64,000 nt of DNA, from positions 38,698-102,697 of the forward strand of contig JBAZVM010000001.1 in the NCBI GenBank assembly GCA_041660885.1, given 5' to 3'. Made by a program: the position numbers and the translations under genes. Numbering within the stretch: the stretch's first letter is position 1; every line of letters starts with the position of its first letter. The DNA is from Patescibacteria group bacterium. Lineage in GTDB: Bacteria > Patescibacteriota > Patescibacteriia > UBA9570 > JAHJKD01. Below the pieces are notes generated by a model. It made no database searches and was not told where the DNA came from. It saw nothing but the letters and a program-made list of their open reading frames with translations. Shown here one piece after another: positions 795 to 48,933 of the stretch.

Positions 795-924
795 AAAATA
801 TTTAGGTTATTTTTTAAGAAAAATAAAAACTAGTATATTGTGTATACTTGTCTATGTAAAAAACTATACAGGAAATTATAATGTCTGTCAAATATATAAG
901 TTAAAATTTTTTATCAATTATAAT

Positions 925-1932
925 TTAATGTATTTTTTCCCACTCTTGATAAGTGCTTGCCTGATATTCAACGTTCCCCAATCCATTCGGGTTAAAGCCG
1001 TTAATTAATTCCTCGCCATCTTTGTATCCATCGTTATCCGTGTCATCAACATCTTTCTCTAAACCCATCATAGTTTCGGCAGAATCTAATAAACCATCAT
1101 AATCTTTATCGCGCAATTGATATTCTGAAGACATATCTTGCAATAAAATTTCTTTGTTATCTGCAAAATTTAAATCTGTATGCTTTATTAATTCAATATA
1201 ATTTAAAATACCATCATTGTCAGTATCTATCATGGCAAAGCTCTCGTACATTAAACTTAATACATCGATATTTTTATTATCATTGCTGGAAGCATCCTCA
1301 ACAGCAGAATAAGGATATAATGGTCTTTTATACTCACAATTTTTAGATGTTTCCACCAAGAAAAAGCAGATATTATTATTTTGAGAGGCATTTTCATTTT
1401 TATTTTCTAAATTAAGATTACTGCTATTTTCGTTATTTAATAAAGAACCAGAAAAGGCGATGAGATCTGATGTCGAATTCTGAAAAAAATAAATTTGAGT
1501 AATTCTAATTATTGAATCATCAAGGCTTTTTAATTTACAACCAATCTCTACCTCTTTTCCTGATGGTACTTTTAATGTTAGTTTTTCTAAAAAAGAATCT
1601 TTATTGACTTTTTGTTGAGAATTTATTGATGCTAAAAAATTTTTAATATTATCATAACTGTCATTAAATGATATCTGAATTATTTCTTCTTTAATATCTC
1701 CTGCTTCACTAATTTCATTAATACATTGTTGATATTCCTCTTCATTATAATTCCATTCCAAAGGTATAGATAGCTGTTCCCCTGATACATCGGTTAAATC
1801 TTGCTCAGATTTTGAAAGAGGTAAAATATAAGTACGAAAATAGGGATAGCATAAAATTCCCCCGACCAAAATAAAAAATGCTAAACCAACTAATATGCCG
1901 ATAAATAATTTGCTCAAACCTTTATGATTCAT
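925..1932 (-). CDS. Hypothetical membrane-anchored protein with C-terminal Asp-rich calcium-binding-type repeats
   Basis: 335-aa ORF. N-terminal hydrophobic helix LFIGILVGLAFFILVGGILCY. C-terminal DTDNDGILNYIE, DKDYDGLLDSAE and DDTDNDGYKDGEE (DxDxDG loops as in thrombospondin type-3 / EF-hand / dockerin-like repeats). Confidence 0.6.
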   Translation of the reverse strand: MNHKGLSKLFIGILVGLAFFILVGGILCYPYFRTYILPLSKSEQDLTDVSGEQLSIPLEWNYNEEEYQQCINEISEAGDIKEEIIQISFNDSYDNIKNFLASINSQQKVNKDSFLEKLTLKVPSGKEVEIGCKLKSLDDSIIRITQIYFFQNSTSDLIAFSGSLLNNENSSNLNLENKNENASQNNNICFFLVETSKNCEYKRPLYPYSAVEDASSNDNKNIDVLSLMYESFAMIDTDNDGILNYIELIKHTDLNFADNKEILLQDMSSEYQLRDKDYDGLLDSAETMMGLEKDVDDTDNDGYKDGEELINGFNPNGLGNVEYQASTYQEWEKIH

Positions 1933-2006
1933 CTTATCAAAGAGATAAATTAATTAAATAAATAATACATTATGACTTGTTTACTGTCAAAATAAATTCA
2001 GTGAGA

Positions 2007-2369
2007 TTAGAAAAAAATATTAGGAAAAAAACGCACCTGCGCTTTGTTTAAAACGGTGTCGTAAAGAATGGCTAAAACATCTATCTGGTAGACCGCTTTA
2101 AAATTATTTTGGCTAAGATAAATAGCCACCGCTCTTTTGGCTCGGCGATATTTTCCCCATGTAATGGCTTCTTCCGGCCGGCCTCTATTTAGATTGGTTC
2201 GGGTTTTTACTTCTATAAAATGCAGGCGATCATCTTTTTCCGCGATAATATCTATTTCCCCCCAACGGGTATAAAAATTTCTATCAATAATAATAAAATT
2301 TTTCTGCTCTAAATATTTAATGGCGATTTTCTCGCCGACTTTTCCCAAATATTGATTGTATTTTTGCAT
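2007..2369 (-). CDS. YraN family (UPF0102) predicted endonuclease
   Basis: 120 aa. GEKIAIKYLEQKNFIIIDRNF...GEIDIIAEKDDRLHFIEVKTR matches the YraN/UPF0102 restriction-endonuclease-like core. Confidence 0.8.
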   Translation of the reverse strand: MQKYNQYLGKVGEKIAIKYLEQKNFIIIDRNFYTRWGEIDIIAEKDDRLHFIEVKTRTNLNRGRPEEAITWGKYRRAKRAVAIYLSQNNFKAVYQIDVLAILYDTVLNKAQVRFFPNIFF

Positions 2370-2459
2370 ATATTTTTTACAAATAAAAAAAGGCTCGCTC
2401 GCCTTTTATAAATCTCCGTTACAGGCGCATTGCAATGCGCCTCTACAGATATTAAAACA

Positions 2460-3041
2460 TTATTTCACAAAAATCAAACCCCAATGGCATTTGCCCGCGT
2501 CAAACTCATCTTGCAGCCGCATACCCAATTGCCCTTCCGCTATCTGTTTAATAGATTCAGGATTTATACGCCTATCCATAGCCGGACCAATAGGAGAATC
2601 TTGATTCTTTTTCCAATCTATTATTGCCAAACGGCCCCCCGGTTTTAATACTCTCATGGCTTCTTTAATAATTTCCGCCTGCTTTTTTGATTGAAACAGT
2701 ACGGTTACTATAAAAGCTACATCCACACTGTTATCGGCTATGGCTTTGGCCGCGCCGTATATTTCCAAATTTGTCCAAACAGGGCGGACATTTTTAAACC
2801 CGTACATGGCGGCTTTGGTCATTACCGCGGGAAGAAGGCTCTTTACCACATCTGCGGCGTAAACTATGCCGTCTTCACCTACCAACTTAGCCGCGGCTAA
2901 AGCCATGCGGGCTTCTCGGCCGGTGCCTAAATCGGCCACGGTGTATCCGTGCTTGATATCCAGCCTTTTCAAGATGGCCGGCACATTAAACATTACTGTA
3001 TTATAGGGCATGGGTATATTATATAAAAATAACCCGCACAT
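2460..3041 (-). CDS. Class I SAM-dependent methyltransferase
   Basis: VADLGTGREARMALAAAKLVG (motif I GxGxG-like), VDVAFIVTVLFQ, LKPGGRLAIIDW. The track start at 3041 lies inside a repeated palindromic element. The internal ATG at 3011 (MPYNTVMFNV...) sits 6 nt after a TATAAT on the minus strand and is the more likely start. Confidence 0.75.
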   Translation of the reverse strand: MCGLFLYNIPMPYNTVMFNVPAILKRLDIKHGYTVADLGTGREARMALAAAKLVGEDGIVYAADVVKSLLPAVMTKAAMYGFKNVRPVWTNLEIYGAAKAIADNSVDVAFIVTVLFQSKKQAEIIKEAMRVLKPGGRLAIIDWKKNQDSPIGPAMDRRINPESIKQIAEGQLGMRLQDEFDAGKCHWGLIFVK

Positions 3042-3049
3042 GTAAAATA
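3012..3049. repeat. Partial copy (C) of the repeated hairpin/promoter element seen at 5555-5645 and 6811-6909
   Basis: gggtatattatataaaaataacccgcacatgtaaaat compared with gggtattatataaaaataacccacacatgtaaaatgtgg at 6811-6848. The second hairpin arm is degenerate in this copy. Confidence 0.6.
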
Positions 3050-3164
3050 TGAGACTTTTATATCCTTACAATATACAGATAAATCCTTTTTTAACATGCG
3101 AGTTATTGATTAGTATTTATCTATGTTATAATAAATAAATTAATAATGATTATTCTATTATTTC

Positions 3165-5510
3165 ATGAAAAAAATATTATTATTCCTCCTTCTCGCTTTC
3201 CCCTTAGCCACCTTTTCCCAAGAAGAATACAGTTTGTCTTTGTTTGAAGAGTTTACCGGAGAAGCGGTTGGTGATTATGCCGGAATATCTTCTTGTACTG
3301 GAGATTTTAATAATGACGGGTATAATGATATTATAATAAGTGCAAATAATAATGATGAAACAGGCGTTAGTGCCGGTTCTGCATACTTGATTTATGGCCA
3401 AGCCGATGGGTTGGCCGGCGTCTCTTTATCTGAAGCAGATGCACGATTTCTCGGTACAGCTGCCGGAGATCAAACAGGCGAGAATGTATCTTCTGCCGGA
3501 GATGTTAATAACGACGGCTATGATGATTTTTTAATAAGTGCAACATACCACGATGACAGCGCTGCGAATGCCGGCGCGGTTTATCTTATTTACGGTCAAG
3601 CCGCATCTTACACAGGTGATATCAGTTTAACTAATGCAGACGCGGAATTTCTTGGTGAAGGCGCGGGCGATAGAGTCTCGAATAGTTATTATCCTGCCGG
3701 AGATGTTAATAACGATGGCTACGATGATTTTGTTTTTGGAACCTACGGTAACGATGAAAGCGGATCAAATGCCGGCGCAGTTTATTTAATCTACGGCCAA
3801 GCCACGCCTTATTCCGGTACTATCAGTTTAGCCGACGCAGATGTAAAATTTACCGGTGAAGTAGCTGGTGATGGTGCTGACGCTGCCTCTACTACCGCGG
3901 ATGTGAATAATGATGGCTATAATGATATTTTAATTGGTGCAAGCGGCAATGAAGGTGCTGGCTCGGTTTATTTTTTTTACGGCGGGCAAGGAACACCTTA
4001 TTCTGGCACTATCAGTTTAACCGCAGCGGATGCGAAATTTACTGGTGAAGTTGTTGATGACGGTGCCGGTTATTCTGTTTCGACCGCCGGAGATGTAAAC
4101 AACGATGGTTATGACGATATTTTAATAGGTGCACCTTATTATAATACTTCTGCCGGCGCAGTTTATTTAATCTACGGCCAAGCCACACCTTTTTCTGGTA
4201 CTTTCAGCCTGACTGATGCGGACGCACAATTTACCGGTGAAGAAGATTGGGAATATGCATGCGATTATTTTTCATCGGCTGGAGATGTCAATAACGATGG
4301 TTATAATGATATTTTAATTAGTTCAACTGATAATAATGGTACTGGCGCCTCCTATCTTATTTATGGACAAGAAATCCCATATTCCGGTACACATATCCTG
4401 GATGATTATGCAGAATTAAAATTTACAGGTGAAGCGATAGGAGATATTGCTGGCAGGACCCCTTCTGCCGGAGATATTAATAATGATGGTTTTGATGATA
4501 TATTAATTGGGACAATACGTAATGGTGACGCTGGCTACTGGGCCGGTGCCGCCTATCTCGGTTACCTCTACATGGATAACGACCACGACGGTCTTCTTGG
4601 TCCTTCTATTCTCTCTACCGGTACCGACACCAATGATAATGATCATGATAATGATGGAATAGAAACAGATATAGACTGTAATGATGATGATATTAATGTT
4701 TTAGGTAAAGTAAACTATTATCAAGATTTAGATAATGATGGTTTAGGTAATAATGAAGTAGATTTATTAAGTTGTACCGTAATAACTGGGTATGTCACTA
4801 ATAATACGGATATTAACGATATTGATCATGATAATGACGGGGTAAACACACTAAATGATTGTAATGACGATGATAATACCATTTCAGAAGAAGAAACATA
4901 CTATAAAGACGGAGATAATGATAATAGAGGCAATCCTGATAAAACTTTATCTCTTTGTTCAAACACGGCTCCTGAAGGATATGTAGCTAATGATTATGAG
5001 AAGTATAATGAAGACGCGGTATACGTAAGAGGAACCAAGAAAGGAGCAGGTGTCGTTAGCCTTTATGATATTAACAATGCTAAGCTAAATCATTGGAAAG
5101 CTTTTTACAAAGGAGGAGTAATAGCCAGACTTGTTACAATAAAGAACGCTACCTATGTTTTAGCCATAAAAAGAAGATCCGGTTCTACTATGCATATGTA
5201 TAATACCAATGGAGATATTCTAAAGAAGGAAAGGCTATCACCGAGATTACATTGGAGAAAACCCGCCATAGGCAATTTAGACAACCAAACAAACACCGAA
5301 GAAATAGTAATATCGGCCCAAAGAGGAGAAACAGTTTATTTTAGAGTATATAGCTTTAATCCTACCAAAAATACCTTTACCTTAGAAAAACAAACCAGTT
5401 ACCAATACCTAAACAAAGACTACCGAGTAGAAATACAAGATAAGCATGTAGTAGTGCTTCTTAACCATATTGGCAAGAAAGTGTTTTCCTGGATGCCGTT
5501 TGAGGAATAA
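3165..5510 (+). CDS. Secreted FG-GAP (integrin-alpha-like) 7-blade propeller protein with Cys/Asp-rich metal-binding-type repeats and a conserved C-terminal module
   Basis: Signal peptide MKKILLFLLLAFPLATFSQ. Seven repeats of the type GDVNNDGYDDxLI...AGAVYLIYGQ. Then DNDHDG / DCNDDD...DNDGLG repeats at roughly aa 470-600. C-terminal 159 aa (nt 5031-5507) are homologous to the C-termini of the 28898 and 33667 proteins. Confidence 0.8.
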   Translation: MKKILLFLLLAFPLATFSQEEYSLSLFEEFTGEAVGDYAGISSCTGDFNNDGYNDIIISANNNDETGVSAGSAYLIYGQADGLAGVSLSEADARFLGTAAGDQTGENVSSAGDVNNDGYDDFLISATYHDDSAANAGAVYLIYGQAASYTGDISLTNADAEFLGEGAGDRVSNSYYPAGDVNNDGYDDFVFGTYGNDESGSNAGAVYLIYGQATPYSGTISLADADVKFTGEVAGDGADAASTTADVNNDGYNDILIGASGNEGAGSVYFFYGGQGTPYSGTISLTAADAKFTGEVVDDGAGYSVSTAGDVNNDGYDDILIGAPYYNTSAGAVYLIYGQATPFSGTFSLTDADAQFTGEEDWEYACDYFSSAGDVNNDGYNDILISSTDNNGTGASYLIYGQEIPYSGTHILDDYAELKFTGEAIGDIAGRTPSAGDINNDGFDDILIGTIRNGDAGYWAGAAYLGYLYMDNDHDGLLGPSILSTGTDTNDNDHDNDGIETDIDCNDDDINVLGKVNYYQDLDNDGLGNNEVDLLSCTVITGYVTNNTDINDIDHDNDGVNTLNDCNDDDNTISEEETYYKDGDNDNRGNPDKTLSLCSNTAPEGYVANDYEKYNEDAVYVRGTKKGAGVVSLYDINNAKLNHWKAFYKGGVIARLVTIKNATYVLAIKRRSGSTMHMYNTNGDILKKERLSPRLHWRKPAIGNLDNQTNTEEIVISAQRGETVYFRVYSFNPTKNTFTLEKQTSYQYLNKDYRVEIQDKHVVVLLNHIGKKVFSWMPFEE

Positions 5511-5527
5511 GAAAATTATAAAACAAA

Positions 5528-5549
5528 ATACCCCGCTTGAGCGGGGTAT
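5528..5549 (-). terminator. Rho-independent terminator hairpin between convergent genes
   Basis: ataccccgc-ttga-gcggggtat. On the minus strand it is followed by TTTTGTTTT. It lies downstream of both the 3165-5510 (+) and 5651-6781 (-) genes. Confidence 0.6.
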
Positions 5550-5554
5550 TCTAG

Positions 5555-5645
5555 ATAAAAATAACCCACACATGTAAAATGTGGGGTTATTTTTTATTAT
5601 ATAGAACGCAGATAACCCCATGTTTTACACATGTGGGTTATCGAT
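5555..5645. repeat. Copy A of a ~90-nt double-hairpin intergenic repeat
   Basis: ataaaaataacccacacatgtaaaatgtggggttattttt, about 10 variable nt, then acgcagataaccccatgttttacacatgtgggttatcgat. Near-identical to 6820-6909. Both halves are imperfect inverted repeats built on TAACCC(C)ACAT / ATGTGGG(G)TTA arms. Confidence 0.8.
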
Positions 5646-5650
5646 AAATA

Positions 5651-6781
5651 CTAGTTCACCTTCAATGTTTGTTTCGTGCTGTTTATTCCAGCGCATTTGG
5701 CCTTAAAGTAATATGTACCTTTGGCCATGTTTTTCGCTTTTGGCTTAAATTTATATAAATAATAGCCGGTATTATCGGTATAGACGGTGTCTACTAAAGT
5801 ATAGGAATCATCACCTTTTAATTTTCTATAAATTTTTACCGCTTTATTTTTAAAGCTGGTCTTTTTCCAACCATACATCTTGGCATAATTGCCTCTTAGC
5901 ACGGTTTTCTTTTTAAACGCGGCGCTTAAATCTTCTTTTTCTTTCGTTTCCACGCTTTTTGTGACCGTACCAGTAGACAAAGCTGAAGCTGTTGTGGTGT
6001 TGCCTGTGCTAAAAGTAATGCCAATGTCTATATACGCACCGCCGGCAGCCGTGGTTGTAACGCTGGTCGTGGCTTGGGCGTCATCTATGAAGACGGCTAA
6101 ATCCTCAGCAGTGATCGTGGTGCTGGACATCGTGCCCATTAAATTTAACATGGTTTGCGGCATATACATCTTAAAGAATCCCGATACGCCGGAAGGACCG
6201 TCTAGAGTTAAGCCAAAACCGAATTCATCCGGACCAGATGGAGGAGTGATTTGGAATTCCTGCACCGTAGTGGAAATGTATCCGCCGGACATAGAGGCCG
6301 GGGGACCGGAAGATGTTGGGTTTTGCATGGAAGGATCGGCGCCAACGGCTATAAAAACCATTACAAAATCTTTATCCGCTTCAGCGTCGCCATCCGGTAC
6401 GTAAAAAGTTCCGGTTGTTCCTGTATAGGAATAGGTGTAAGAAGTAGTGCTGTTTTGCGTTACTGTAAAAGTATCGTGATCGATTTCAAAACCAGCGGTC
6501 ATTAACATGGGCGCGCCCAGCAATTCGGTGTCTGAAGTTACGGTACAAGAAACAGTATAAGTAGGAACTGCGGTATCAGCCGTATAAACATATCCTACTA
6601 CGTCTTCTACCACCAATGGGTTTGGGGAATTAGATGGAGGATCAAAAGAAACTACCATATCGGTAGCATCGCTTGATGTTACAGTGCAAGTGGTATCCAT
6701 TGCCGCGTTCGTTGTTTGCGGCAATAGGCACAGGCACATCGCCCCCATAAAAAACATGCTGAGAAGAAGATGTTTTTTCAT
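5651..6781 (-). CDS. Secreted Thr/Ser-rich hypothetical protein with a basic beta-sandwich-like C-terminal domain
   Basis: Signal peptide MKKHLLLSMFFMGAMCLCLLPQTTNAA. T/S-rich body. The C-terminus VKIYRKLKGDDSYTLVDTVYTDNTGYYLYKFKP...GTYYFKAKCAG resembles carboxypeptidase-regulatory-like / Cna-B-like folds. Bracketed by repeat copies A and B. Confidence 0.6.
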   Translation of the reverse strand: MKKHLLLSMFFMGAMCLCLLPQTTNAAMDTTCTVTSSDATDMVVSFDPPSNSPNPLVVEDVVGYVYTADTAVPTYTVSCTVTSDTELLGAPMLMTAGFEIDHDTFTVTQNSTTSYTYSYTGTTGTFYVPDGDAEADKDFVMVFIAVGADPSMQNPTSSGPPASMSGGYISTTVQEFQITPPSGPDEFGFGLTLDGPSGVSGFFKMYMPQTMLNLMGTMSSTTITAEDLAVFIDDAQATTSVTTTAAGGAYIDIGITFSTGNTTTASALSTGTVTKSVETKEKEDLSAAFKKKTVLRGNYAKMYGWKKTSFKNKAVKIYRKLKGDDSYTLVDTVYTDNTGYYLYKFKPKAKNMAKGTYYFKAKCAGINSTKQTLKVN

Positions 6782-6810
6782 GGTTTTTTTAGTTTTAATT
6801 ATTATCTAAT

Positions 6811-6909
6811 GGGTATTATATAAAAATAACCCACACATGTAAAATGTGGGGTTATTTTTATCTCATGGTACGCAGATAACCCCATGTTTTGCACATGTGG
6901 GTTATCGAT
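6811..6909. repeat. Copy B of the ~90-nt double-hairpin intergenic repeat, with a putative minus-strand -10 box
   Basis: Same two hairpins as 5555-5645. On the minus strand the element ends in TTATTTTTATATAATACCC (TATAAT = 6815-6820), about 34 nt upstream of the ATG at 6781. Confidence 0.8.
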
Positions 6910-6911
6910 TG

Positions 6912-8150
6912 TTAAAACCTTCTGGCTTTTTGCGCGGCAGCGATGCGGCCCGCGGCTACTATGTAGGCGGCCGTGCGGATATCGGTATTATACTTTTCGT
7001 GAGCTTGCCAAATCTCGTTGAAATTATTCACCATAATCGGTTTTAATTTCGCCAAGACTTCTTCTTCGGTCCAATAATAATTATACGCGTTCTGCACGCC
7101 TTCAAAATAGGAAACAGTTACGCCGCCGGCATTAGATAAAATATCCGGCACCAATAAAATTCCTTTTTTATTGAATTTTTCATCTGCTTCCGGCGTGGTG
7201 GGGCCGTTAGCTAATTCCACAATGGCTTTGGCTTTTACTTTACCCGCGTTTTCTTTGGTGAGTACGTTTTCCAAAGCAGCCGGAATTAAAATATCGCAAG
7301 GAATGCTAAAAATTTGCTTATTCGTAATATTTTTTGAGCCTTCAAAATCCATAACGGATCCGGTTTTCTTTTTGTGAGCTAAAACTTTTTTCGGGTCTAA
7401 ACCTTTGTCGCTGAAAATTCCACCCTTGGAATCGGAAACCGCGATAATATTATAGCCAGCTTTGGCTAAAATGGAAACCATATATGAGCCGGCATTGCCG
7501 AATCCTTGGATGACCACTTTCGCGCCTTTCTTTAGACCCATTTTCTTGGCCAGTTCAAAAACTATGTAAGCTCCGCCTTGAGCGGTCGCGTAGCCACGGC
7601 CTTGGGATCCGCCAATTTCCACTGGTTTACCGGTAATAACGCCAGGCAGATATTCTCCTTTAATTTTGCAATACTCGTCCATCATCCAAGCCATAATTTT
7701 CGGATTGGTATAAACATCCGGCGCCGGAATATCAATCGTCGGGCCGATATCCTTGGCCAAAGCTTGAATGAACCCGCGGGATAATCTTTCCAATTCTCCT
7801 TCGCTAAGTTCCCTATGATTGACGGTTACTCCGCCTTTGCTTCCGCCCATGGGAATGCCCACGGCCGCGCATTTGAATGTCATCCAAAAAGATAGCGCTT
7901 TTACTTCGTTAATTTCCGTTTGCGGATGAAAACGAATTCCTCCCTTAAAAGGACCGCGAGTATTATCATACTGCACGCGATAACCTTCAAACACTTTTAA
8001 AGAACCGTTATCCATACACACCGGTATGGAGATGTGTATCTCTCTCTTTGGTCTTTTTAAACGTTCGTGAACTTCGGGGTCCAAATTCATTAATTTGGCC
8101 GCTTTGTCTAGCTGCGCTAACGCGCTTTTGTAAGGATTGATTTTCGCCAT
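6912..8150 (-). CDS. gdhA: Glutamate dehydrogenase
   Basis: 412 aa. FEGYRVQYDNTRGPFKGGIRFHPQTEINEVKALSFWMTFKCAAVGIPMGGSKGGV carries the Glu/Leu/Phe/Val dehydrogenase active-site Lys motif. Rossmann motif VVIQGFGNAGS. Confidence 0.9.
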   Translation of the reverse strand: MAKINPYKSALAQLDKAAKLMNLDPEVHERLKRPKREIHISIPVCMDNGSLKVFEGYRVQYDNTRGPFKGGIRFHPQTEINEVKALSFWMTFKCAAVGIPMGGSKGGVTVNHRELSEGELERLSRGFIQALAKDIGPTIDIPAPDVYTNPKIMAWMMDEYCKIKGEYLPGVITGKPVEIGGSQGRGYATAQGGAYIVFELAKKMGLKKGAKVVIQGFGNAGSYMVSILAKAGYNIIAVSDSKGGIFSDKGLDPKKVLAHKKKTGSVMDFEGSKNITNKQIFSIPCDILIPAALENVLTKENAGKVKAKAIVELANGPTTPEADEKFNKKGILLVPDILSNAGGVTVSYFEGVQNAYNYYWTEEEVLAKLKPIMVNNFNEIWQAHEKYNTDIRTAAYIVAAGRIAAAQKARRF

Positions 8151-12181: not shown

Positions 12182-12201
12182 ACCCCGCTCCGGCGGGGAA
12201 T

Positions 12202-12215
12202 GTTCCACGTGGAAC
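12202..12215. repeat. Perfect 14-bp palindrome GTTCCACGTGGAAC (copy 1 of the AATGTTCYACGTGGAACA motif)
   Basis: Follows the GC hairpin ccccgc-tccg-gcgggg between the convergent TrmB and DUF3795 genes. A near-identical copy lies at 12790-12803. Confidence 0.6.
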
Positions 12216-12221
12216 AATTAT

Positions 12222-12758: not shown

Positions 12759-12789
12759 TATTTTAATAAATATTTATTTTATTGTAAAT

Positions 12790-12803
12790 GTTCTACGTGG
12801 AAC
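12790..12803. repeat. GTTCTACGTGGAAC, copy 2 of the AATGTTCYACGTGGAACA motif
   Basis: In the spacer between tRNA-Ala(CGC) and tRNA-Val. Differs at one position from the perfect palindrome at 12202-12215. Confidence 0.55.
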
Positions 12804-12805
12804 AG

Positions 12806-20170: not shown

Positions 20171-20631
20171 TGTACCCGCAGACGCATTTATTATCGGGTA
20201 TTGTTATCGGGCTTGCGGCTAATCAATTGGGCTATTTAAACGTTCAAGAAACTTTGGCCGTACCCGCGCTTACCACTTTACTGGATGTAGACCATTATTT
20301 ATTTTACTCTTTCAAATATAAAACGCTTAACTTCCGCAAAACATGGGAAGCGGCTGTAAAGAATAAAGAAACGGGAGAGCGCACGGCCATTCACCATTGG
20401 CTGGGATTTCTTTGCTTCACTCTACTGATAATTTTTCTATTTTATTATTATCAGCCTTTCGGCATTATTTTGGCTTTGAGTTATTACACCCATATTCTGC
20501 TGGATTACTTGCCGATTTACGGCAAAAAGATAAAATTTAAAATATTCAATTTAAAATTTCAGCTGACCACGGAAGAGGTAGCGCTTGATTGCTTATTTTT
20601 ATTAAGCTGTGTTATATTATTAATAAGGTAA
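20170..20631 (+). CDS. Hypothetical polytopic membrane protein (possibly DUF457-like membrane-bound metal-dependent hydrolase)
   Basis: 153 aa with 3-4 hydrophobic helices and conserved-looking His/Asp (THLLSG, LLDVDHYL). ATGA-type overlap with the rny stop. Confidence 0.4.
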   Translation: MYPQTHLLSGIVIGLAANQLGYLNVQETLAVPALTTLLDVDHYLFYSFKYKTLNFRKTWEAAVKNKETGERTAIHHWLGFLCFTLLIIFLFYYYQPFGIILALSYYTHILLDYLPIYGKKIKFKIFNLKFQLTTEEVALDCLFLLSCVILLIR

Positions 20632-20632
20632 T

Positions 20633-20711
20633 CTGTTGGGAGCACTCCGCTAAGCGGGGTTGAGACGCATCCCTAGAACCCGATCTGGATAATACCAGCG
20701 TGGGGAAACAG
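20633..20711 (+). promoter_or_regulatory. TPP (THI-box) riboswitch aptamer
   Basis: ctgtt-gggagcactccgctaagcgggg-ttgaga-cgcatccctagaacccgatctggataataccagcgtgggga-aacag. Shows the CUGAGA-like bulge and the ACCYGAUCUGGAUAAUACCAGCG pyrimidine-sensor helix, closed by P1 ctgtt/aacag. Upstream of a thiamine ABC operon. Confidence 0.85.
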
Positions 20712-20727
20712 CAAACTTTTTAAAAGG

Positions 20728-20771: not shown

Positions 20772-20791
20772 GGAACGCACATGTGCGTTCC
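20772..20791. promoter_or_regulatory. Perfect 20-bp palindrome GGAACGCACATGTGCGTTCC centred on the ORF start codon (copy 1)
   Basis: Self-complementary over all 20 nt. It sits inside a 34-nt block (20767-20800) identical to 24734-24767. AAGGA lies 6 nt upstream of the central ATG (20781). Confidence 0.7.
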
Positions 20792-24738: not shown

Positions 24739-24758
24739 GGAACGCACATGTGCGTTCC
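24739..24758. promoter_or_regulatory. Perfect 20-bp palindrome GGAACGCACATGTGCGTTCC (copy 2)
   Basis: Identical to 20772-20791, inside the identical 34-nt block 24734-24767, at the 5' end of the HU gene. Confidence 0.7.
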
Positions 24759-27792: not shown

Positions 27793-28362
27793 ATGTACCG
27801 CTCCATCGTCATGATTGCGGCGCTCTCCCTCTCCACCTCGGCCATGGCCCAGGACTTCGACCCCACTCGGGTGCGACTCCTCATCCATGGGAGCCTCGAG
27901 GTAAAGGAAAATGTGGAGCTGCGCGCCCATTTTATTCCGGCGGGCAATCTGCTGGGTGAAGTCGCGCCTATCTTGTACCTGGGCGTCAACTTCAAGCCCG
28001 TGGAGTGGCTGGGGTTCGAGCCGGTCGTCGGGTGGACCTTCGTCACCGACGAGCCCATCGTCTCCCTCCGCGCCTCCCCGGACTTCGGGCTGATCTACGG
28101 TTGGGCGGACATCGAGCTCAACCTGCCCGGTCTGGGTGGGTACTGGTTCGTACAAGCCGATGTCCGTCTCCTCAAGTGGCTCCACATGGGCCTCGAGGGC
28201 GAGGGCTGGGGGAGCTACTACACCGACTTCTTCAGTAACGGCGGGGGGCCGAACTTGCTCCTGCGGTACGGAAAGGTTGGCGTGGATTTGGCAATCCATG
28301 CACGTGAAGTCAACGACTCGGTCGGTCCCGGGTTCGTGATAAGATTTCATACCTTCCTTTAG
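27793..28362 (+). CDS. Signal-peptide small beta-barrel outer-membrane-protein-like protein (GC-rich, foreign-looking)
   Basis: MYRSIVMIAALSLSTSAMA-QD signal. Alternating amphipathic strands (VRLLIHGSLEV, VELRAHFIP, ILYLGVNFKP, VSLRASPDFGLIYGWADIELNL, YWFVQADVRLL, VGVDLAIHAR). C-terminal GFVIRFHTFL. Strong G/C preference at third codon positions in this frame. GAGGA lies 6 nt before the ATG. Confidence 0.55.
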   Translation: MYRSIVMIAALSLSTSAMAQDFDPTRVRLLIHGSLEVKENVELRAHFIPAGNLLGEVAPILYLGVNFKPVEWLGFEPVVGWTFVTDEPIVSLRASPDFGLIYGWADIELNLPGLGGYWFVQADVRLLKWLHMGLEGEGWGSYYTDFFSNGGGPNLLLRYGKVGVDLAIHAREVNDSVGPGFVIRFHTFL

Positions 28363-28475
28363 CCGCCCTGGTTGCCACCAGGAACCGCCCCGCGTTGTCT
28401 TCACTGACAGCGCGAGGCGGCAAACATTACATGAATTTGACCACTAATAAATAATATTTTAATATAATTCTCTAG

Positions 28476-28562: not shown

Positions 28563-28790
28563 TTACGACGCTTTGTCCGCGATCGTAATCTCGACTTGGC
28601 AGCCGAGCGCTTCTAACGCTCGACACACCATCGAGAGCTTCGTCCGCTTATAGTCGGATTCTTCCCACCGGCATACTCTGGAGGGATCAACCCCCAGTAG
28701 CCGAGCGAGCTCGCTCTGCGACACCCCCCTTTCGAGCCGTAAGCTCTTTAGAGCACGGCCCAAATCGCGAATGTCAGTGAACTCTAGCAT
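28563..28790 (-). CDS. XRE-family helix-turn-helix transcriptional regulator (antitoxin-like), GC-rich
   Basis: 75 aa. LKSLRLERGVSQSELARLLGVDPSRVCRWEESDY is a canonical XRE HTH. AGGAGG lies 6 nt upstream of the ATG. Confidence 0.75.
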   Translation of the reverse strand: MLEFTDIRDLGRALKSLRLERGVSQSELARLLGVDPSRVCRWEESDYKRTKLSMVCRALEALGCQVEITIADKAS

Positions 28791-45611: not shown

Positions 45612-45930
45612 GCAAAAATCTTTTTATAGCGGTTTGCAGTTGTTCTTCAGTGGCTGAAACGCAGCCATGTTTGATTAATATAATAATATCGTATTTTTTA
45701 ACAGTTTCTTGCCAATTTTTACCCCAAATAGCGCGCACTCTTCTTTTTTGTTTGTTTCTGTCTACGGCTTTGGGCAAAGTTCTTTTAGAAACCACTATGC
45801 CCAAGCGGGCATGGCCAAGGCAGTTGGGGGAGTACTTAATATTAAAATAAGGAGTGCTAAAAAATTTACCTTTTTTATACGCTTGCTTATAGTCTTCTTC
45901 TTTGAAAAGCCGGTATTTCCTGGCTAGCAT
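45595..45930 (-). CDS. rnpA: Ribonuclease P protein component
   Basis: 111 aa. LGIVVSKRTLPKAVDRNKQKRRVRAI (RNR motif region). Sits between rpmH and yidD. Confidence 0.8.
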   Translation of the reverse strand: MLARKYRLFKEEDYKQAYKKGKFFSTPYFNIKYSPNCLGHARLGIVVSKRTLPKAVDRNKQKRRVRAIWGKNWQETVKKYDIIILIKHGCVSATEEQLQTAIKRFLHEKVL

Positions 45931-45933
45931 GTT

Positions 45934-46071
45934 TTAGGCAGTCAATTTTTTTCTGCCTTTAGTGCGGCGAGAACGCAAAACACGGCGGCCATTCTTGGTT
46001 TTCATTCTTTTGCGAAAACCATGTTCTTTTTGTCTTTGCCTTTTATTCGGCTGGTATGTTCTTTTGGGCAC
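45934..46071 (-). CDS. rpmH: 50S ribosomal protein L34
   Basis: Below the ORF-track cutoff. My translation from GTG at 46071 is (M)[44 protein letters not shown], the classic L34 sequence. Confidence 0.85.
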
Positions 46072-46142
46072 AAATATTTTTCTTAGTTAATAAAGTAGAT
46101 ATTAGAATACTAAAATTTTCGTTTTTCGTCAATATCAACACC

Positions 46143-46162
46143 TCATCCACATCTTATTCACA
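46143..46162. promoter_or_regulatory. Two adjacent DnaA-box-like 9-mers upstream of dnaA
   Basis: TCATCCACA (46143-46151) and TTATTCACA (46154-46162), each one mismatch from TTATCCACA. Confidence 0.55.
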
Positions 46163-46245
46163 AAATTTGCCTTTGCGCCTATATTTATACGTTGCTTTTT
46201 ATGTTATAGTTAAACAACAAAAATAATAATTAAAACTTAAATTCC

Positions 46246-47613
46246 ATGACAGCGGACCAACTTTGGCAAGCGGCCTTAGCCGAACTTGAATTGTCTCTTT
46301 CTAAAGCCAATTTCACTACCTGGTTTAAAAATACCTTTATTTTAAGCTATGAAAATAATAGTGTCGTCGTTGGCGTGCCCAATGCCTTTACTAAAACTTG
46401 GTTGGAAAATAAATACCACGCGCAAATATTAAGGGCTTTGCAAAATATCACCGAGCAAAAAGTGAAAGAGGTCACGTATAAAGTTTTTGCCAACCAGAAA
46501 AAAATTGCCAAAATAATCACCCAAGAAGTGAAAACTGAAGAAAAAAAAGAAAAGCTCCCCACCCTTCCGGCTAAAAAAACGCATCCCATCCACACCCTTC
46601 TTAATAATCGCTATACCTTTGAAACGTTTGTGGTAGGCAAAAAAAACGAATTAGCGCATGCTGCCTGTTTAGCCGTGGCAGATAAGCCAGGCACTGTCTA
46701 CAACCCGTTATTTATTTATGGCGGAGTAGGCCTAGGAAAAACCCATCTTATGCAGGCTATCGGCCACCGCATACTGGAAAAGCAACCGGATAAAAAAATT
46801 CTTTATGTCCCTTGTGAAACCTTTACCAACGAATACATTAATTCCGTGGGCAGAGGAGAAGCAGACAGCTTCAAAGATAAATATCGCTCCGTGGATCTTC
46901 TTATGATTGATGATATTCAATTCTTAGCCGGCAAAGAAGGTACGCAAGAAGCTTTTTTTCATACATTCAACGCTTTACACCAAACTAACAAACAAATCGT
47001 GATTACCTCGGACAGGCCTCCCAAAGCCATCCCCACCCTAGAAAATCGCTTGATATCCCGCTTTGAATGGGGGATGATAGTGGACATCGGCTTGCCGGAT
47101 TTAGAAACAAGAATCGCCATATTAAAAAACAAATGCCAGGAAAAAGGCTTTTCTTTAGAAAATGAAGTAGTTGTTTTTATCGCGACAACAGTACAAAATA
47201 ACATTCGCGAACTGGAAGGCGCTTTAAACCGCGTTATCGCTTCCACGCAGCTTTCCAATGATAAACCAACCCTGGAAGTGGTTAAAAAGCTTTTATCTTC
47301 TTTAACGCAAGCTCCTAAAAAAGGCGCTTTAACCGCGAAAAAAGTTATTACGGCCGTTTCTGAGTATTTCGAAATAAAAGCGGTTGATATCACGGGTAAT
47401 TGCCGTAAAAAAGAGCTTGTGGTGCCGCGCCAAATCGCCATGTATTTAATGCGCGAAGAAATGAATTCTTCTTATCCGAATATTGGCGAAGAATTAGGTG
47501 GCCGCGATCACACTACCGCCATGCACGCGTATAATAAAATTGTAAGAGAAATAGAAAACAATGAGAAGCTGCAGCAAGATTTAAATTTAATAAAACAAAA
47601 ACTTTACAACTAA
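46246..47613 (+). CDS. dnaA: Chromosomal replication initiator protein DnaA
   Basis: LWQAALAELE..., AAA+ Walker A GGVGLGKTHL, LMIDDIQFL, and domain IV RKKELVVPRQIAMYLMRE...IGEELGGRDHTTAMHA. Confidence 0.95.
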   Translation: MTADQLWQAALAELELSLSKANFTTWFKNTFILSYENNSVVVGVPNAFTKTWLENKYHAQILRALQNITEQKVKEVTYKVFANQKKIAKIITQEVKTEEKKEKLPTLPAKKTHPIHTLLNNRYTFETFVVGKKNELAHAACLAVADKPGTVYNPLFIYGGVGLGKTHLMQAIGHRILEKQPDKKILYVPCETFTNEYINSVGRGEADSFKDKYRSVDLLMIDDIQFLAGKEGTQEAFFHTFNALHQTNKQIVITSDRPPKAIPTLENRLISRFEWGMIVDIGLPDLETRIAILKNKCQEKGFSLENEVVVFIATTVQNNIRELEGALNRVIASTQLSNDKPTLEVVKKLLSSLTQAPKKGALTAKKVITAVSEYFEIKAVDITGNCRKKELVVPRQIAMYLMREEMNSSYPNIGEELGGRDHTTAMHAYNKIVREIENNEKLQQDLNLIKQKLYN

Positions 47614-47826
47614 TTTCCTGTTTATAACCCTGTTTACATTACTGTTGAAAAACTGTTCTTAAAAGCAAAAAAAATAAAATATTTATTTCTTCACATCTTC
47701 TTCACTTTTCTCCCCACTTCATATACACAGAAGAAAAATAATATACATCAATATTTATCGAAACAAAAACATCATATACACATATCAACAACGCTTATTA
47801 ATATTATTATCTAATTAAATACATAT
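47614..47826. other. Candidate oriC (dnaA-dnaN intergenic region)
   Basis: 213-bp AT-rich non-coding gap. Identical 11-mers TCATATACACA at 47719-47729 and 47772-47782 (ATATACACA = 8/9 of TTATNCACA), plus weaker TTCTTCACA-type boxes and the A/T tract aaaaaaaataaaatatttattt. Confidence 0.55.
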
Positions 47827-48933
47827 ATGAAAATATCATGCACCCAAGAAAATTTGCACAGGGGGTTAAATGTCATTAGCCATCTAGCAGCTAAGAATAC
47901 GAATCTTCCCATTCTTAACAATGTTTTAATTAAAACAAAAGAAGGGGGCGTGGTTTTGTCTGCCACTAATTTAGAAATAGGCATTAATTGCTTGGTGCGC
48001 GCCAAAGTGGAAAAAGAAGGTGTATTCACCGCGCCGGCTAATTTACTGGCTAATTTTATTTCCCTGCTTAGCAGTGAAGAAAAAGTAGATATTGAATTAA
48101 TTAATAAAGAACTGATAATTCAATCAGGAAATCAAAAAACAAAAATAAAAGGAGAGGACGCCTCCGAATTTCCTTTAATTCCGGACGTGGCAAAAGAAGA
48201 TAGATACGTGGTTAAAAGCGCGGATCTCAAAGAAGCACTCTCGCAAGTGGTGTTTGCCTCTTCTCTTGATGAAACAAGAATAGAAATATCCGGCATCTTA
48301 TTTAATTTTAATAAAAATGGACTAACTTTGGCTGCCACGGACAGTTATCGTTTGGCGGAAAAGAAGGTTTCCTGCAAAGAAAAGGGTAAAGACAAACAAA
48401 TTATCATTCCGCAGCGCACAGCCGCAGAATTTTTAAGAATTTTAGCTATTACAAACGAAGAGGACGTTCAAATTTATACTAATGATAATCAAGTATTATT
48501 TTCTCTTGATCAAATTGAAGTAGTCTCCCGCTTAATTGAAGGTAATTATCCTGATTATACCCAGATTATCCCCAAGCAGGAAAAGACTCAAATTATTACG
48601 GAAAAAAGCGAGTTGATTACGGTTATTAAAAGAGCCGCCCTTTTTTCCAAATCGGGCATTAATGATGTAAATTTGGAATTTAATATTGATAAACAATTAA
48701 TAGTAGTAAAAGCCGCCAGTTCGCAAGTCGGGGAGAATTTAAACGAACTGCCCGCGGAAATAAAAGGAGATAATAATTCCATCGTGTTTAATTTTCGTTA
48801 TTTATTGGATGGTTTGAATAATTTATCCGGTAATAAAATAATATTAAAAATTATTGATAGCGGAAGCCCGGGTATTTTTCGGGGAGAAAACGAAGAAAAT
48901 TATTTATATATAATCATGCCCATTAAACAATAG
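47827..48933 (+). CDS. dnaN: DNA polymerase III beta sliding clamp
   Basis: 368 aa. MKISCTQENLHRGLNVISHLAAKNTNLPILNNVLI...ATDSYRLAE...RLIEGNYPDY...MPI. Confidence 0.9.
   Translation: MKISCTQENLHRGLNVISHLAAKNTNLPILNNVLIKTKEGGVVLSATNLEIGINCLVRAKVEKEGVFTAPANLLANFISLLSSEEKVDIELINKELIIQSGNQKTKIKGEDASEFPLIPDVAKEDRYVVKSADLKEALSQVVFASSLDETRIEISGILFNFNKNGLTLAATDSYRLAEKKVSCKEKGKDKQIIIPQRTAAEFLRILAITNEEDVQIYTNDNQVLFSLDQIEVVSRLIEGNYPDYTQIIPKQEKTQIITEKSELITVIKRAALFSKSGINDVNLEFNIDKQLIVVKAASSQVGENLNELPAEIKGDNNSIVFNFRYLLDGLNNLSGNKIILKIIDSGSPGIFRGENEENYLYIIMPIKQ

Follow-up and report, generated by a model that had tools for sequence, protein, structure and literature searches.

What is the repeat that stands at both ends of a single gene in a 64-kb stretch of Patescibacteria DNA (the whole of which is referred to here as the window), and does it make that gene a mobile unit? 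The gene in question (5651–6781) encodes a 376-residue protein, and the sequence alone had suggested a cassette bounded by direct repeats. The analysis described below reveals a small, previously undescribed double-hairpin DNA element that occupies the spaces between genes in several Patescibacteria genomes, as a dispersed family with conserved hairpins and variable site occupancy, and it shows that the 376-aa gene is not a cassette. With a probability of roughly 0.6, we regard the element as a low-copy, insertion-derived, non-coding unit of the kind represented by doublets of repetitive extragenic palindromes (REPs) and by miniature inverted-repeat transposable elements (MITEs), locally duplicated in three spacers and partly co-opted.

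Two inverted hairpins in three neighbouring spacers

The window holds three copies, which are described, like the element itself, on the minus strand, where all family members share one register.

5544–5650, minus strand: copy A, with hairpin Y at 5561–5590, spacer at 5591–5610 and hairpin X at 5611–5642; 106.6 bits with the family model
6811–6914, minus strand: copy B, with hairpin Y at 6826–6855 and hairpin X at 6875–6906; 98.9 bits
3012–3117 (approximate), minus strand: copy C, full length and decayed, both hairpins broken; 61.3 bits

The unit is composed of two 28-nt bulged hairpins, X and Y, placed about 20 nt apart and inverted relative to each other. Hairpin X, the 5′ arm of which carries a bulged A, reads TAACCC-A-CAYG / TGTAAAA / CRTG-GGGTTA; hairpin Y, where the bulge is a T and belongs to the 3′ arm, reads TAACCCCACAT / TTTAYA / TGTG-T-GGGTTA. 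Being inverted copies, X and Y make the whole unit a nested palindrome for which two folds are possible, a pair of short hairpins or a single long one; in copy A, the arms of the latter (5561–5590 and 5612–5641) are 87% complementary and 21 nt apart. Between X and Y in the window there are two compensatory base-pair differences, which leave both short hairpins intact and introduce a mismatch into the long one, and the short hairpins therefore appear to be the conserved structures.

That copies A and B are a genuine repeat with double hairpins, as the original prediction held, is confirmed by several observations. The 30-mer ATAACCCACACATGTAAAATGTGGGGTTAT, which is the first hairpin of that prediction and corresponds to Y, occurs exactly at 5561–5590 and at 6826–6855, and no exact match of this type arose in 100 dinucleotide-preserving shuffles. 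The second hairpin (X) at 5611–5642 and 6875–6906 differs by one loop base between the two copies. RNA folding of copies A and B gives z-scores of −7.0 to −8.6 against shuffles, DNA folding gives −7.5, and the single hairpins of 28–30 nt with one bulged base reach −4.7 and −5.6 as DNA. The boundaries first drawn (5555–5645 and 6820–6909) enclose real copies of a unit that extends further on both sides. Identity between A and B is 86% over ~107 nt; the spacer and one loop base do differ, as had been noticed, and so do the flanks, to which all remaining differences are confined. About 10–12 nt between the hairpins indeed vary, within a gap of 19–20 nt rather than the ~10 nt originally described. 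A contig of the Logan collection (L002; such L-numbers label the compared loci and contigs from other genomes and metagenomes) has both of its ends inside copies A and B.

The third copy, first taken for a fragment at 3012–3049, aligns with A and B from end to end at 70–74% identity, covering approximately 3012–3117 with disrupted hairpins. Its folding z-scores are −0.2 and −2.3, the plus strand folding no better than shuffles, and the only preserved stretch runs from the Y loop to TATAAT, which is the promoter part discussed below. Copies B and C also have an extra flank in common, TATAATA(TA)CCCAT. A covariance-model search found no further copies in the 64-kb window, so that three copies lie in three consecutive intergenic regions within 3.9 kb and none in the other 60 kb.

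Comparison of 13 copies from this and other genomes indicates that the changes in the stems are compensatory: 97% of the stem cells are paired, three pairs are changed on both sides, none of 500 shuffles reaches the observed level of covariation, and slid controls fall to 25–54% paired. This test draws on few independent events, and because the search patterns fixed the outer stems for one hairpin per match, invariance of these stems is informative only for the partner hairpins. The hairpins have been kept by selection or by copying. In the intact copies, 251 of 252 pairs are Watson–Crick pairs, the single other being T–G; this near-absence of G–U pairs agrees slightly better with selection or copying at the DNA level than with an RNA structure and is not decisive.

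A family dispersed in other genomes

Genome and metagenome collections were scanned with exact patterns only, and all counts given here are of strict-pattern matches. In the genome collection, the strict single-hairpin pattern occurs at eight loci in three metagenome-assembled genomes (MAGs), namely the marine rock-biofilm Patescibacteria genome mb.65, the Kerfeldbacteria genome UBA9570 and a bin labelled Gammaproteobacteria, one contig of which is 99.75% identical over the overlap to a metagenome contig of AMFJ01. The doublet pattern matches six metagenome contigs, one being a second contig from the window's own sample, on which the element lies between the convergent rpoC and guaB genes; a BLAST alignment that takes in the spacer motifs puts its identity with copies A and B at 88–91%, and over the longer ~107-nt units the identity is ~80%. 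Most of the matches are doublets with the same layout as in the window (L004–L009, L011–L014 and L016). All copies are intergenic, between tandem, convergent or divergent gene pairs, and the flanking genes are unrelated to one another: those for phosphoenolpyruvate carboxykinase, LepA, TypA, a CDP-alcohol phosphatidyltransferase, an ABC permease and large surface proteins, the atp operon, and rpoC/guaB. Orientation relative to transcription is mixed (about five co-directional and about four anti-directional). The proposed search of related genomes has thus yielded copies at unrelated intergenic sites, in at least three other Patescibacteria MAGs as well as on one further contig from the window's own population.

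Site occupancy differs even between close relatives. At the rpoC/guaB site, two relatives (L041/42 and L043, with guaB 84 and 82% identical) carry abutting stop codons or a plain terminator instead of the element. After the glutamate dehydrogenase (GDH) gene that precedes copy B, the element is absent in L017, L018/19 and L020 (GDH 88, 82 and 77% identical, respectively), and UBA9570 has an ordinary terminator there, though the family is present elsewhere in that genome. Presence and absence at orthologous sites are therefore seen at two loci with empty sites, and the genomes that carry the family also differ in the loci that they occupy. Insertion or duplication has given different lineages their copies at different loci. 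Two genomes with 78% DNA identity have orthologous copies upstream of the atp operon, in which 27 of the 28 positions of X are conserved and the spacer has changed in length. The empty sites in relatives, taken with these retained orthologs, show that copies arise at new sites and can also persist at old ones. Dispersal over unrelated intergenic sites and empty sites in close relatives support the REP/MITE-like alternative among the readings first put forward.

Genome-specific subfamilies can be recognized by shared flanks, which are ATCGA here and CCG in mb.65; those of the Kerfeldbacteria group are long and complementary to each other, giving a three-way structure of ~150 nt. The window, mb.65 (L008) and the Kerfeldbacteria loci share an identical X 28-mer. 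The copy number is three in the 64 kb, one on the second contig and two to four loci per MAG. Plasmid and phage collections gave no meaningful match. In viral contigs, a loose single-hairpin pattern found 17 matches, all of them singletons with no partner hairpin. The majority show no hairpin complementarity, the others represent one recurrent phage hairpin, and these matches were dismissed as chance or unrelated.

Several observations were made beside the copies in other genomes. L005 (at 4223) is 99.2–99.7% identical to L014 (at 1729) and L013 to the right of the element and unrelated to them on the left, a breakpoint at or inside the element that would stem from recombination between copies or else from a chimera assembled at the repeat. 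In mb.65, arrays of paralogous ~550-aa proteins, 37–45% identical to each other, adjoin element copies (three in L003 at 820–6509 and two in L004 at 2284–5562), and the 549-aa member in L004 has weak, sub-threshold Pfam matches to treble-clef zinc fingers at both ends.

A purely local duplication without a wider family had been offered as the simpler explanation in case no other copies existed. The crowding of three copies into consecutive spacers and the flank shared by B and C are what it would predict, and it does explain the clustering. As the origin of the element, it is refuted by the same element between rpoC and guaB on the other contig and by its presence in three other MAGs, which leave it an exceedingly small chance. 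The preferred reading of an insertion-derived element accommodates both facts, as the three adjacent copies may have come from local duplication or recombination. Under this reading, the hairpins would act as single-strand structures, probably of DNA, that are recognized by a trans-acting, structure-specific enzyme.

Several points weigh against an insertion-derived element, however. No transposase or recombinase was found in the window, where 18 ORFs were compared with Pfam and the other ORF translations were read by eye, and tblastn with IS200 TnpA and Escherichia coli RAYT queries found none in 276 kb, which is a crude search and a weak negative. The hairpins have no GT[AG]G foot, and there is no consistent target-site duplication, a single possible pair (CGATT) being seen in L009 only. 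REPs and MITEs typically number tens to hundreds of copies, whereas the copy number here appears low. In addition, the X 28-mer is identical across lineages with GDH only ~71% identical, an invariance for which a conserved host function accounts no less well than a selfish element does. Finally, the promoter and terminator roles described below are those predicted from matches to consensus sequences.

Such a host function is the substance of another explanation, in which the hairpins or palindromes bind a conserved Patescibacteria protein (for example a factor for the nucleoid or for topology, a protein like DnaA or a global regulator) and are kept for their service to the host rather than by spreading. 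Besides the identical X 28-mer in the window, mb.65 (L008) and the Kerfeldbacteria loci, it draws on the low copy number per genome, on the orthologous copies kept upstream of the atp operon, on the agreement of the half-site TAACCCACA with the DnaA box TTATCCACA at seven of nine positions, and on a perfect DnaA box that abuts the element in L006 and L007. In conflict with it are the different loci used in different genomes and the empty sites in close relatives, the lack of a common function among flanking genes, the symmetric covariation of the inner stem positions, which favours intrastrand pairing over base-specific contacts of a dimer, and the fact that copy C has been left to decay. Upstream of dnaA, this genome has DnaA boxes of canonical form (TCATCCACA and TTATTCACA), and canonical parS sites lie elsewhere in the window. 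We consider a conserved host site possible, but unlikely.

The sites to which these arguments refer deserve a brief description of their own. In both orthologous loci upstream of the atp operon, TTATCCACA falls within ~17 nt 3′ of the element (L006 at ~2085–2100 and L007 at ~1975–1985). In the window, the canonical DnaA boxes are at 46143–46162, within a region (45930–48933) that has rnpA–rpmH on one strand and dnaA–dnaN on the other. Of the canonical parS-like palindromes TGTTCCACGTGGAACA (12201–12216) and TGTTCTACGTGGAACA (12789–12804), one lies inside a cluster of four tRNA genes and the other immediately upstream of it. Gene orientation switches here, and the cumulative GC skew is at its minimum; this origin-type switch near 12.6–13.6 kb is ~33 kb from the dnaA region.

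The gene between the repeats and its predicted signals

The neighbourhood of the three copies, read on the minus strand, runs from the GDH gene through copy B, the 376-aa gene, copy A, a terminator, an FG-GAP gene on the opposite strand, copy C and a methyltransferase gene to a UPF0102 gene.

6912–8150, minus strand: GDH gene, the conserved left anchor of a variable interval
5651–6781, minus strand: gene for the 376-aa protein, with a signal-peptide-like sequence at the N-terminus; ATG at 6781
5524–5553, both strands: bidirectional terminator hairpin ACCCCGC-TTGA-GCGGGGT, ordinary and G+C-rich, outside the repeat
3165–5510, plus strand: FG-GAP repeat protein gene (781 aa), with copy C on one side and copy A on the other
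2460–3011, minus strand: S-adenosylmethionine-dependent methyltransferase gene, the conserved right anchor; true start at ATG 3011, not 3041

The 376-aa protein contains no Pfam domain. The nearest named relatives are Kerfeldbacteria, with GDH ~71% identical, and the closest relative available (L017, GDH 88% identical) has in the same order the GDH gene, a gene for a 379-aa protein, a plain terminator, and the methyltransferase and UPF0102 genes, with neither the element nor the FG-GAP gene in the interval. The 379-aa protein is an ortholog of the 376-aa protein, with 63% identity at the same position. Since this ortholog stands in the same place and no repeat adjoins it, the 376-aa gene belongs to the resident genes, evolves fast and is older than the repeats, and the synteny in L017 rules out the cassette for which it had been taken. 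It would simply have acquired a chance copy of the element in each of its flanking spacers.

The GDH-to-methyltransferase interval does vary among relatives, the FG-GAP gene, absent from this position in L017 and L020, being its only gene-level indel. Because the terminator at 5524–5553 and a TATAAT at 5516–5521 line up with the terminator and the methyltransferase −10 box of L017, the former appears to be orthologous to the terminator that follows the 379-aa gene, and we infer that the FG-GAP gene and copy C were inserted together just upstream of the methyltransferase start. The closest homolog of the FG-GAP gene (72%) resides in a different context with no element, suggesting that gene and element do not travel together in general; a co-mobile pair was rejected on this ground. 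FG-GAP genes themselves seem to be frequent insertions. In a Kerfeldbacteria genome (L047, 2100–5627), an amidohydrolase gene and a gene for a 689-aa FG-GAP protein lie between guaB and rpoC, unlike elsewhere, where these two genes abut or are parted only by the element or a terminator.

The idea of recombination sites for gene capture or cassette exchange, by which a site- or hairpin-specific recombinase inserts or swaps single genes, is not confined to the 376-aa gene. Two single genes are set apart by three direct copies, relatives lack the FG-GAP gene of the A-to-C segment in this interval, the whole interval is variable among them, a 106-aa gene in L010 has a single hairpin on either side, an 11-6-11 site can be read into the 28-nt hairpin, and the breakpoint between two 99.7%-identical contigs falls at the element. 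Against the idea count the following: the 376-aa ortholog keeps its place without repeats, the closest FG-GAP homolog is element-free, most copies elsewhere are solitary between housekeeping genes, the attC cores RYYYAAC and GTTRRRY are absent on direct reading, no integrase or recombinase appears among the window ORFs (18 scanned against Pfam, the rest by eye), and the L005/L014 breakpoint may be a chimeric assembly. Exchange sites, named among the first possibilities for this repeat, are accordingly very improbable. The 106-aa gene in mb.65, between same-orientation single family hairpins at 835–872 and 1205–1232, is the only other bracketed gene seen.

A bolder form of the same idea, which we mention as a speculation of slender probability, would make the double hairpin the site of a hairpin-specific enzyme, such as a domesticated HUH nuclease or a recombinase, that is conserved across Patescibacteria; recombination at such sites would carry accessory genes for surface proteins into conserved intervals. 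The enzyme would maintain the nearly invariant X of distant lineages, and the FG-GAP gene and the 106-aa gene of L010 would have been captured via such sites. If true, this would constitute a gene-capture system specific to these reduced genomes.

Under the preferred reading of an insertion-derived element, by contrast, the copies in this genome may have been put to use as transcription signals. In copy B, X starts 5 nt past the GDH stop codon, and Y with its T-run precedes the predicted promoter of the 376-aa gene. Copy A lies between the stop codon of the 376-aa gene, 8 nt off on one side, and the terminator of the convergent FG-GAP gene on the other, and copy C is placed between the divergent methyltransferase and FG-GAP genes. 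Two promoter-like sites were recognized.

6815–6843, minus strand: promoter-like site of copy B, with −35 TTTACA at 6843–6838 (the Y loop), a 17-nt gap and −10 TATAAT at 6820–6815; 11 of 12 consensus positions
3018–3046, minus strand: promoter-like site of copy C, with TTTACA, a 17-nt gap and TATAAT; 11 of 12 consensus positions

The −10 box first noticed in copy B, at the edge of that copy and upstream of ATG 6781, is upheld in this way and extended to a full −35/−10 pair by the TTTACA in the loop of hairpin 1; a TATAAT in the relative L017 stands at the matching position. The −10 of copy A is altered, and this copy faces the end of a convergent gene. In copy C, the −10 ends 6 nt ahead of the methyltransferase ATG (3011). 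Since TATAAT ends 5–7 nt before the ATG of the methyltransferase gene in three genomes (3011–3023 in the window, 6400–6420 in L017 and 12355–12370 in L020), its mRNA is suggested to be leaderless.

On the terminator side, Y together with TTATTTTTAT was flagged as terminator-like on the minus strand of copies A and B, and Y with a T-run is found also in L016. In this genome, Y forms a succession of A-run, stem-loop and T-run, and X has no T-run. The three intact copies of this genome all start 5–10 nt past a stop codon and are co-oriented with that gene. Hairpin Y with its T-run may thus end the upstream transcript, after which the Y loop (−35) and the flanking TATAAT (−10) would start the next one, that of the 376-aa gene at copy B and of the methyltransferase gene at copy C; judged from consensus matches, the element would here be a compact 'stop, then start' module between genes. 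As the T-run and TATAAT are both absent from family copies in other genomes, this role is probably a local co-option.

These same signals also underlie an explanation at the RNA level, according to which the element is a duplicated intrinsic terminator or 3′-UTR stabilizer, or else a structured non-coding or cis-regulatory RNA. The position and co-orientation of the three intact copies and the flagged terminator formed by Y between its A-run and T-run are consistent with it, as are the rpoC/guaB site of L043, a plain terminator with the TTTTATA loop and the CCCC/GGGG stem that are also found in the element, and the folding of the Kerfeldbacteria subfamily into a three-way junction. Yet the T-runs are missing in other genomes, the orientation is mixed (about five co-directional against about four anti-directional), the intact copies have almost no G–U pairs, no Rfam family matches, and copies occur also between divergent genes (L006, L007 and copy C). 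A primarily RNA-level element is therefore judged improbable. Paired operators for one dimeric regulator, likewise on the initial list of possibilities, are unlikely in view of heterogeneous neighbours and of copies between convergent genes; the operator-pair or regulon model was rejected also because the stem positions covary symmetrically and the copy at a divergent promoter (C) is the decayed one.

Other features of the window are recorded here for completeness. A second palindrome family, GGAACGC-ACATGT-GCGTTCC within AGTAAGGAACGCACATGTGCGTTCCCAACAAAAAnTATG, has two exact copies in the window (20772–20791 and 24739–24758) against 0.1 expected, and recurs in L016 (4469–4488) and L017 (6366–6385); such palindromes lie 12–15 nt upstream of the starts of genes for a thiamine ABC binding protein, HU and PurA, and a variant in L017 with another loop serves as a terminator. 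A thiamine pyrophosphate riboswitch (20628–20723, 73 bits) precedes a thiamine-type ABC transporter operon. At 27800–28400, a patch of 59–66% G+C in the 40% G+C window, which may be foreign DNA, contains an ORF of 189 codons with a signal-peptide-like start (27793–28362, plus strand), beside an XRE-type helix-turn-helix gene (28563–28790, minus strand).

Comparison with known systems

Genomes of Patescibacteria (the candidate phyla radiation, CPR) are small and streamlined and are regarded as repeat-poor. Neither a paper on such an element in Patescibacteria or on the motif itself nor an account of any REP-, BIME- or MITE-like family for this group was found in the searchable literature. Two traits of the element are unusual, namely its apparently low copy number and one hairpin that is almost invariant where housekeeping proteins are only ~70% identical, the latter implying a conserved trans-acting partner. 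In practical terms, the element interrupts short-read assemblies (one contig has its two ends within copies), marks a possible breakpoint of recombination or mis-assembly and, as an apparent terminator-plus-promoter module in this genome, bears on operon calling in these MAGs; a tempting but wrong 'gene cassette' annotation is also removed.

No Rfam family was matched at the gathering threshold, and the E-value mode returned only weak generic hairpins (at most 31.7 bits, against thresholds of at least 47). A parS identity was rejected, as the element does not match the parS consensus TGTTNCACGTGAAACA and canonical sites lie elsewhere in the window, and so was a cluster of DnaA boxes, given that the half-site departs from the consensus at two of nine positions and that the genome's own boxes are canonical. 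The attC sites of integrons and the Xer-dependent dif modules of Acinetobacter plasmids are imperfect palindromes of 60–140 nt with extrahelical bases that stand between single genes, and the 28-nt site can be read as 11-6-11. The element differs in that its ends, CGATAAC... and ...GGGTTAT, do not fit RYYYAAC/GTTRRRY, that the bracketed 376-aa gene is ancestral to the repeats and that most copies are solitary; with the core sites absent and no integrase among the window ORFs, an attC identity was rejected. Terminator-like repeats such as SPRITE are similarly dispersed and resemble intrinsic terminators (PMC3184786), but the T-run of the element is restricted to the subfamily of this genome, and the element is a doublet in which X has no T-run.

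A closer likeness is found in MITEs. The unit of 80–150 nt is non-coding, its outer arms are complementary in the manner of MITE terminal inverted repeats, its hairpins begin and end with TA, and in the Kerfeldbacteria subfamily further inverted repeats, ACCTGAACCC and GGGTTCAGGT, are added at the termini. The Correia elements (CREE) of Neisseria, which are promoter-carrying MITEs, are alike in being ~100–150 nt long and non-coding with inverted ends, in their presence or absence between related genomes, and in their location 5′ of genes with outward-facing promoters (PMC3184786). The element differs from MITEs in that the arms are themselves palindromes and that no reproducible target-site duplication surrounds the copies; no parent insertion sequence with matching ends is known, and none turned up in the plasmid, phage and viral collections.

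The REP doublets known in enterobacteria as bacterial interspersed mosaic elements (BIMEs) and in Pseudomonas as REPINs are mobilized by RAYT (TnpA-REP) transposases of the Y1 HUH type (PMC3116915, PMC3333891, PMC2817692, PMC6006769). REPs carry a conserved GT[AG]G guide tetranucleotide 0–2 nt 5′ of the hairpin foot and are described as species-specific (PMC6006769), and their copy number usually exceeds 100 per genome (PMC2817692). The feet of the element are instead (A)ATC-GA here, CCG in mb.65 and CCTGC in the Kerfeldbacteria group, with no GT[AG]G; only a few copies are seen per genome, the sequence is conserved across distinct lineages, and the stems are A+T-rich at the base. No RAYT gene was found in the reachable sequence, which comprised the window ORFs and 276 kb searched crudely by tblastn. 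On account of the missing foot, the RAYT that was not found, the apparently low copy number and the distribution beyond one species, the element is not filed as a REP. It nevertheless shares with BIMEs and REPINs the arrangement of two imperfect ~28-nt palindromes with a stem irregularity, inverted and joined by a short variable linker, the strictly extragenic location near stop codons and between convergent genes, the ability to fold as two hairpins or as one long hairpin, the better conservation of doublets than of singlets, which decay, and the local clustering of copies.

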